Shown here: positions 63,260 to 63,508 of the stretch, piece after piece
Position numbering within the stretch: the first letter of the stretch is position 1
Layout of the letters: every line of letters starts with the position of its first letter
NCBI RefSeq assembly: GCF_041886205.1
Contig: NZ_CP169029.1
DNA: 64,000 nucleotides
Direction: 5' to 3' (one strand)
DNA from: Escherichia coli
GTDB taxonomy: Bacteria; Pseudomonadota; Gammaproteobacteria; Enterobacterales; Enterobacteriaceae
Notes under the pieces: model-generated
Seen by the model: the letters and a program-made list of their open reading frames with translations, nothing else
Told to the model about the DNA's origin: nothing
Databases searched by the model: none
Translations under genes and position numbers: made by a program

Positions 63260-63508
63260 ATGCGTATTGAAATCTGCATAGCCAAAGAAAAAATGACTAA
63301 AATGCCAACCGGTGCTGTGGATGCGTTAAAGGAAGAATTAACCCGACGCATCAGTAAGCGTTATGACGATGTAGAGGTGATCGTAAAAGCCACCAGCAAC
63401 GATGGGCTTTCAGTTACACCTACTGCAGATAAAGATTCAGCTAAAACTTTTGTGCAGGAAACTCTGAAAGATACCTGGGAGTCTGCTGACGAGTGGTTTG
63501 TTCACTAA
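63260..63508 (+). CDS. DinI-family protein (SOS/RecA modulator homolog)
   Basis: 82 aa, [11 protein letters not shown]...[16 protein letters not shown]; resembles DinI in length and C-terminal ETWESAD-WFV motif as I recall it. Confidence 0.7.

Follow-up and report, generated by a model that had tools for sequence, protein, structure and literature searches.

A DinI-family gene with predicted LexA operators at the attachment-site end of a phage-type element in dusA of Escherichia coli

DinI proteins and the elements of dusA

The DinI protein of Escherichia coli lies in the groove of the RecA filament, where it spans five protomers and stabilises the filament (PMC9926225). The residues that hold DinI in this groove were identified by Gao et al. 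through cryo-EM and mutagenesis, and include L13, L21, W71, W77 and F78, which form a hydrophobic pocket, and the acidic E24, E69 and D76 (PMC9926225). The RecA features used by DinI (F203 and K232/R243/K245) are also used by LexA, UmuD and lambda CI (PMC9926225), and DinI at high concentration inhibits RecA activities (as cited in PMC13192584 and PMC10575684).

The DinI relatives encoded by phages and prophages include: (i) the dinI homologues of the Salmonella prophages Gifsy-1, -2 and -3, which come first in a LexA-controlled operon, ahead of an antirepressor gene (gfoA/gftA) and then irsA (PMC3121763) and are induced 4.6-23-fold by nalidixic acid (PMC3121763; PMC8072944), (ii) Tum of phage 186, the C-terminal half of which is DinI-like (PMC3121763), and (iii) the DinI-like proteins of lambdoid coliphages (mEp460 gp21, cdtI gp30, CP-1639 dinI, VT1-Sakai H0001 and those of Stx1/Stx2 prophages), which share 91.5-98.8% identity over 82 residues with the protein described here. 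Non-polar deletion of the Gifsy-1 and Gifsy-3 homologues has no significant effect on induction reporters (PMC3121763). This is the only genetic test found in the literature, and no phenotype was found there that is attributed to any prophage copy of the gene cassette discussed below.

The elements that integrate in dusA, known as DAI elements (Farrugia et al. 2015; Phi-stx2dact and Phi1720a-02), carry an integrase gene that abuts the dusA 5' end and diverges from it, an att motif ~100 nt inside dusA, and a replacement for the dusA 5' end (the last arrangement is described in PMC6328086 and PMC4482086). According to Farrugia et al., the integrase is the only universal DAI gene; DinI is unmentioned in the paper (PMC4482086).

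A phage-type element in dusA

The locus lies at the end of a 64,000-nt stretch of E. coli DNA (NCBI RefSeq assembly GCF_041886205.1, contig NZ_CP169029.1), hereafter the window. The features that define the element are:

60975-62012, minus strand: dusA ORF, a chromosome/element hybrid
61904-61922, minus strand: attL core motif GCTCCTATGCTCGACTGGA, ~100 nt into the dusA coding sequence
61917-62012, minus strand: dusA 5' end (first ~32 codons), supplied, with the upstream region, by the element (attL/attR alignment)
62101-63198, plus strand: dusA-associated tyrosine integrase gene (int), 365 aa (Pfam PF00589 Phage_integrase, E 7.5e-21; PHROG integrase families)
63732-64000, minus strand: end of an IS903-family (IS5-like) insertion sequence (NCBIfam IS5-family transposase C-terminus), which is not part of the cassette

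The int gene and dusA (start at 62012) are on opposite strands and divergent, with 88 nt between the two starts. As the preliminary description had it, the DinI-like gene adjoins an integrase gene, this tyrosine recombinase being directly upstream. The attR of this genome lies beyond the window, and the attR data are taken from an O157:H7 relative (L003), in which the displaced native dusA 5' fragment is an annotated 105-nt pseudogene at attR. The dusA 5' region of the window can be aligned to attL and attR of O157:H7 from the dusA start codon as far as ATGCTCGA, beyond which the three sequences are no longer similar. The attB of Phi-stx2dact (PMC6328086), which also lies in dusA, matches the attL motif GCTCCTATGCTCGACTGGA when reverse-complemented. 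Because similarity is lost past ATGCTCGA, the attB sequence matches and the arrangement is that of the DAI elements, the element is concluded to begin inside dusA at ~61917, and the annotated dusA is a chromosome/phage hybrid. The window shares with the DAI elements the position and orientation of int, the att motif and the replacement dusA 5' end; it appears to hold a typical E. coli member of this group, and no tested feature departs from the published description. Between the dusA and int starts (62040-62085) is a cluster of GGGTTCCC / GGGAACCT repeats, with one inverted pair and a direct repeat; in the O157 relative (L003), a GGGAACC motif is found close to attR as well. These repeats may be binding sites for a regulator or arm-type sites for the integrase.

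The module of int and the DinI-like gene (int-dinI) is present in 722 of 5426 complete E. coli genomes, with int copies of 98-99.9% identity at the same position. It heads prophages of different types: an apparently fuller, lambdoid siphovirus-type prophage in strain GXU-23-25-310, a myovirus-type prophage with pinE in strain CX21, and a ~10.7-kb remnant with DUF1076-domain genes in O157:H7. In the viable phage mEp460, int is followed by a promoter, the DinI-like gene and a convergent gene for the side tail fibre. This recurrence of a 98-99.9% identical module at the left end of dusA prophages and in mEp460 supports the reading of the dusA element as one of temperate-phage type with the DinI-like gene at its attachment-site (left) end, and agrees with the earlier proposal of a phage-like rather than a metabolic island.

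The IS903-family element interrupts the dusA element 224 nt past the stop codon of the DinI-like gene, and the window ends within it at 64000. Matching DNA is labelled 'IS5-like element IS903/IS903B family transposase' in RefSeq. Homology to an uninterrupted locus (L001) stops at 63731; in L001, the closest relative, the point of insertion is 47 nt upstream of a gene for an 'SDH family Clp fold serine proteinase'. The IS903 junction was found in zero complete RefSeq E. coli genomes, the best match (H1) stopping at the IS. The preliminary description of the DinI-like gene as early cargo of an island is borne out as a map position only, the body of the island being hidden behind the IS903-family element and the window end. 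The chromosomal flank is 97.9-99.0% identical to that of three other E. coli genomes. Since the int-dinI segment is 99.7-99.9% identical to that of GXU-23-25-310, a strain with a flank of only 98.85% identity, the comparison fits horizontal sharing of the element.

The DinI-like gene and its transcription signals

The DinI-like gene and the signals assigned to it are:

63195-63223, plus strand: sigma-70-type promoter, predicted by consensus scan
63199-63218, plus strand: predicted LexA box 1, CACTGTTTATCCATACAGTT, with 15/20 matches to the consensus TACTGTATATATATACAGTA, filling the -35/-10 spacer
63227-63246, plus strand: predicted LexA box 2, TACTGTATACAAACACAGTA, with 17/20 matches to the same consensus, covering the predicted transcription start
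63260-63508, plus strand: DinI-like gene, an intact 82-codon ATG ORF for a protein of 82 aa (coordinates include the stop codon)
63535-63576, plus strand: probable intrinsic terminator, a G+C-rich hairpin (CCGCAGCACG...CGUGCCUGCGG) followed by UUUUU

The ATG is the first start past an in-frame TAA (63224-63226) that lies 33 nt upstream, and is preceded at 5 nt by the ribosome-binding site AGAGGGA (63248-63254). The 82-aa protein matches Pfam PF06183 (DinI) with 68.5 bits (E 6.1e-19; gathering score 24.2), covering the profile in full (positions 1-63 of 63), and PHROG 189, 'RecA filament binding protein DinI', with an E value of 1.8e-30, aligning to positions 71-149 only of the 151 in that profile. 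It also matches the E. coli DinI structures 1ghh and 7ywa end to end in sequence (E 4e-13). An AlphaFold2 model, built from an alignment of ten sequences, has a mean pLDDT of 82 and the element order E-H-H-E-E-H-H, and its top Foldseek matches are 7ywa_A and 1ghh (TM 0.82-0.86, rmsd ~2 A); besides these, the Foldseek search with the model returned zero folds at E <= 0.001. Profile, sequence and fold thus agree on the DinI family, and the assignment proposed in the preliminary description holds, with a significant match in the profile search.

The protein shares with E. coli DinI (1GHH; 7YWA) the length class, the beta-alpha-beta-beta-alpha fold, the C-terminal TWESAD(D/E)WF and a LexA-box promoter. 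All eight RecA-contact residues are kept in the alignment of the two proteins, five of them identical and three conservative (L13, L21, W71, W77, F78, E24, E69 and D76 of E. coli DinI correspond to M15, L23, W73, W79, F80, E26, D71 and E78). By contrast, identity is 42-49% by alignment, the window protein has two 2-residue insertions, and the window gene, unlike chromosomal dinI, is on a mobile element and has two strong LexA boxes. Because its score against the NCBIfam DinI equivalog NF007893 (73 bits) is under the 111-bit cut-off, the gene, carried as it is on a mobile element in dusA, is classed by sequence as a DinI-family paralogue distinct from chromosomal dinI. Given the ~42-49% identity, the sub-equivalog score and the insertions, the affinity of the protein for RecA or its preferred effect on RecA may differ from that of E. 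coli DinI. Codon 54 (63419-63421), in the loop ahead of the C-terminal helix, encodes Pro in the window allele and Arg in 60 of 62 related copies; P54 is common only to the window allele and strain GXU-23-25-310. The lambdoid coliphage copies have R54 where the window has P54, and a double LexA box identical or nearly so to that of the window; the IS903-family element downstream is a further difference of the window.

The predicted promoter has a perfect -35 hexamer (TTGACA, 63195-63200), which overlaps the int stop codon (TGA, 63196-63198), a spacer of 17 nt and a -10 hexamer of TAAAAA (63218-63223). In the GenBank record of mEp460, precisely the 29 nt homologous to this stretch are already marked as a promoter. 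The preliminary description had pointed to the gap at 63199-63259 as a place for a LexA box, and two candidates are present, over the spacer and the start region, judged by their number of matches to the consensus TACTGTATATATATACAGTA. Both have the form CTGT-N8-ACAG and lie within 44 nt, with the end of box 2 at 13 nt from the ATG. In the whole 64-kb window, CTGT-N8-ACAG is observed three times versus 0.5 expected; the third occurrence (3166-3181) is inside a 742-codon ORF and is taken as a chance match. When the pattern is relaxed to CTG-N10-CAG, the uvrA/ssb operator (49709-49724, CTGTATATTCATTCAG) is picked up, and it serves as a positive control within the window. Among the 30 haplotypes with complete upstream sequence, the core tetramers CTGT/ACAG are invariant (0 of 16 positions vary) versus 16 variable positions of 49 in the rest of the promoter region, a difference with a Fisher p of 0.007 that is indicative only, since the haplotypes are related and their independence is overstated. 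Eight distant phage homologues of 37-70% protein identity (those of PhiR12_2, Klebsiella phages, BP-4795, Gifsy-2, an Aeromonas phage, SEN34 and Yersinia phage YeP3) were also checked. Seven have a LexA box 13-19 nt ahead of the ATG, and the exception is YeP3, in which dinI is the second gene of a pair. In BP-4795 (locus L089, 248-1908), the first LexA box has degenerated (CTGG...ACAA), and a same-strand gene for a 'putative avirulence protein' lies 3' of the DinI-like gene, so that transcription from the SOS promoter may there extend into a gene of effector type.

The hairpin of the probable terminator starts 27 nt past the stop codon, with an RNA fold of -25 kcal/mol (z -3.2). A simple terminator scan missed the hairpin, most likely because its loop is 9 nt versus the 3-8 allowed. 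Many related loci (L004, L010, L014 and others) have the segment that holds it (63512-63576) together with the cassette, but with an extra ~36 nt between it and the stop codon. A few E. coli genomes (H63, H64) have this segment alone, and it behaves as a separate small module. An Rfam search of 61800-64000 returned only two sub-threshold matches (E 0.2-0.8), far under the gathering scores. With its own promoter, operators, ribosome-binding site, ORF and terminator, the DinI-like gene is regarded as a self-contained and probably SOS-induced transcription unit.

The gene is under strong purifying selection. The 86 full-length copies from the fetched loci comprise 28 nucleotide alleles, and the window allele compared to the 27 others has a dN/dS of 0.02-0.07, with dS up to 0.33 and dN at most 0.016. 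Taken without int, the cassette (63192-63515) occurs in 1675 of the 5426 complete E. coli genomes, which have up to 7 copies each. Elsewhere, the block of homology starts at 63192-63195, 0-3 nt ahead of the -35 hexamer, and ends just past the stop codon. The cassette sits at the extreme ends of prophages, beside dusA, yecD/E, ssrA or prfC and convergent with tail-fibre genes; in many Stx-phage records it is at most ~1.5 kb from the end of the record, and the viable phages that carry it include mEp460, cdtI and Stx phages. The sequence 3' of the cassette varies by locus and includes pinE, tail-fibre genes, genes for type III secretion system (T3SS) effectors and a serine protease. Such a distribution is the behaviour of a discrete accessory unit that is exchanged by recombination between phage backbones. 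Of 3398 cassette sites in E. coli, 3387 are chromosomal versus 11 on plasmids, and only 21 PLSDB records have the cassette, several of these being phage- or chromosome-sized. This near absence from plasmids leaves the earlier comparison to conjugative elements without support. At the end of one prophage beside prfC (E. coli fECg99.1, locus L086, 6066-8632), the cassette is accompanied at ~2 kb by a second DinI-family gene, annotated 'DinI family protein'; an S24-peptidase pseudogene separates the two, and a Panacea-domain gene follows them.

Proposed role, alternatives and significance

The locus is, with good probability, a stand-alone DinI paralogue that forms a self-contained LexA-controlled unit at the attachment-site end of a temperate-phage element that integrates in dusA. 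In the undamaged cell, host LexA would occupy both boxes, over the spacer and the start site, and keep the gene off. On DNA damage, activated RecA (RecA*) would promote the self-cleavage of LexA, and the gene would be expressed together with the SOS genes of the host. Like E. coli DinI, its small acidic product would then bind the groove of the RecA-ssDNA filament, with F203 of RecA loop L2 in its hydrophobic pocket and RecA K232/R243/K245 opposite its acidic patch. The prophage protein is proposed to add to the cellular dose of DinI and so to stabilise filaments, and at higher dose to compete with co-protease substrates; SOS, UmuD processing and repressor cleavage would then differ in strength or timing. 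For the window copy, binding by LexA, induction during SOS, binding to RecA and the direction of the effect on the cell are each predicted here. The modulation of host RecA/SOS activity that the preliminary description had suggested is likewise expected from homology and from the conserved contact residues. The benefit to the phage could be a delayed or sharpened induction, a limit on UmuD-dependent mutagenesis, or interference with rivals or defence systems. Because the Gifsy-1 and Gifsy-3 deletions are without significant effect, the phenotype of a deletion may be subtle or conditional.

The DinI-like gene might instead be the first gene of an SOS-controlled module that triggers prophage induction, either a Gifsy-type module with an antirepressor or a split Tum-type antirepressor. 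The Gifsy operons and the DinI-like half of Tum provide the models for this view, the partial alignment to PHROG 189 is in its favour, and a 57-codon GTG ORF (63493-63666) overlaps the 3' end of the gene. This ORF, however, spans the hairpin of the terminator, with its run of five U residues, and is without a PHROG match, and it was rejected as a downstream antirepressor gene. The neighbours 3' of the cassette also differ among related loci. The Gifsy homologues are prophage-borne behind a LexA box, as is the window gene, but share only ~42% identity with its protein; they have a single box 19 nt from the ATG, lie in the nin region ahead of a small ORF, and are co-transcribed with the antirepressor gene, whereas the window gene is monocistronic, has two boxes and belongs to a clade that is terminal in the prophage. 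The idea of a truncated Tum is countered by an ORF that starts at the position of DinI M1, behind the in-frame stop. An induction module of Gifsy or Tum type is, in sum, very unlikely.

It is also very unlikely that the gene has lost its function in a decayed prophage and is neither expressed nor selected any longer. The IS903-family element just downstream, the rest of the element beyond view, the unusual P54 of the window allele and the remnant state of the O157:H7 dusA element would suit such decay, but the ORF, ribosome-binding site, promoter hexamers, both LexA boxes and terminator are all intact, and the low dN/dS across alleles denotes strong purifying selection; a dead remnant is judged unlikely on these two grounds. 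The cassette is, moreover, kept even in remnants, and the window copy is 99.7% identical to that of the GXU-23-25-310 prophage. A further proposal is that the main selected role is in conflict among phages or between phages and defence systems, exerted through occupancy of the RecA filament or through freed ssDNA. In a screen of DNA-mimic proteins, expression of E. coli DinI enhanced the protection by Zorya II against phage T3 (bioRxiv preprint, PMC13192584), and the cassette is a portable accessory unit at prophage ends, among genes such as those of T3SS effectors and in up to 7 copies per genome, as would befit such a role. The conflict role would, however, still run through binding of the RecA filament, which makes it a refinement of the main explanation and not an alternative molecular function; as the principal role, it is improbable. 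The preferred reading remains that of a LexA-controlled DinI paralogue that acts on the RecA filament.

A broader view of the cassette is speculative and, on balance, doubtful. The unit of ~320-385 bp (double LexA box promoter, DinI-like ORF and terminator) may be a portable 'SOS-tuning' cassette that moves between unrelated prophage backbones and integration modules, always to the attachment-site end. Accumulated copies (up to 7 per genome) would together raise the dose of DinI and thereby shift the RecA* threshold, or the time, at which repressors are cleaved, UmuD is processed and the whole community of resident prophages is induced, or alter defence that senses RecA or ssDNA.

The DinI-like gene is an ordinary, widespread and already annotated prophage gene, and the value of the present analysis for annotation is small, as the RefSeq name 'DinI-like family protein' exists and the mEp460 record marks the promoter. 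The gene instead serves as a marker that the dusA element is phage-derived, not metabolic, and carries an intact accessory gene that is predicted to be wired to SOS. For the species, about one third of complete E. coli genomes have at least one prophage copy of this cassette under strong purifying selection.
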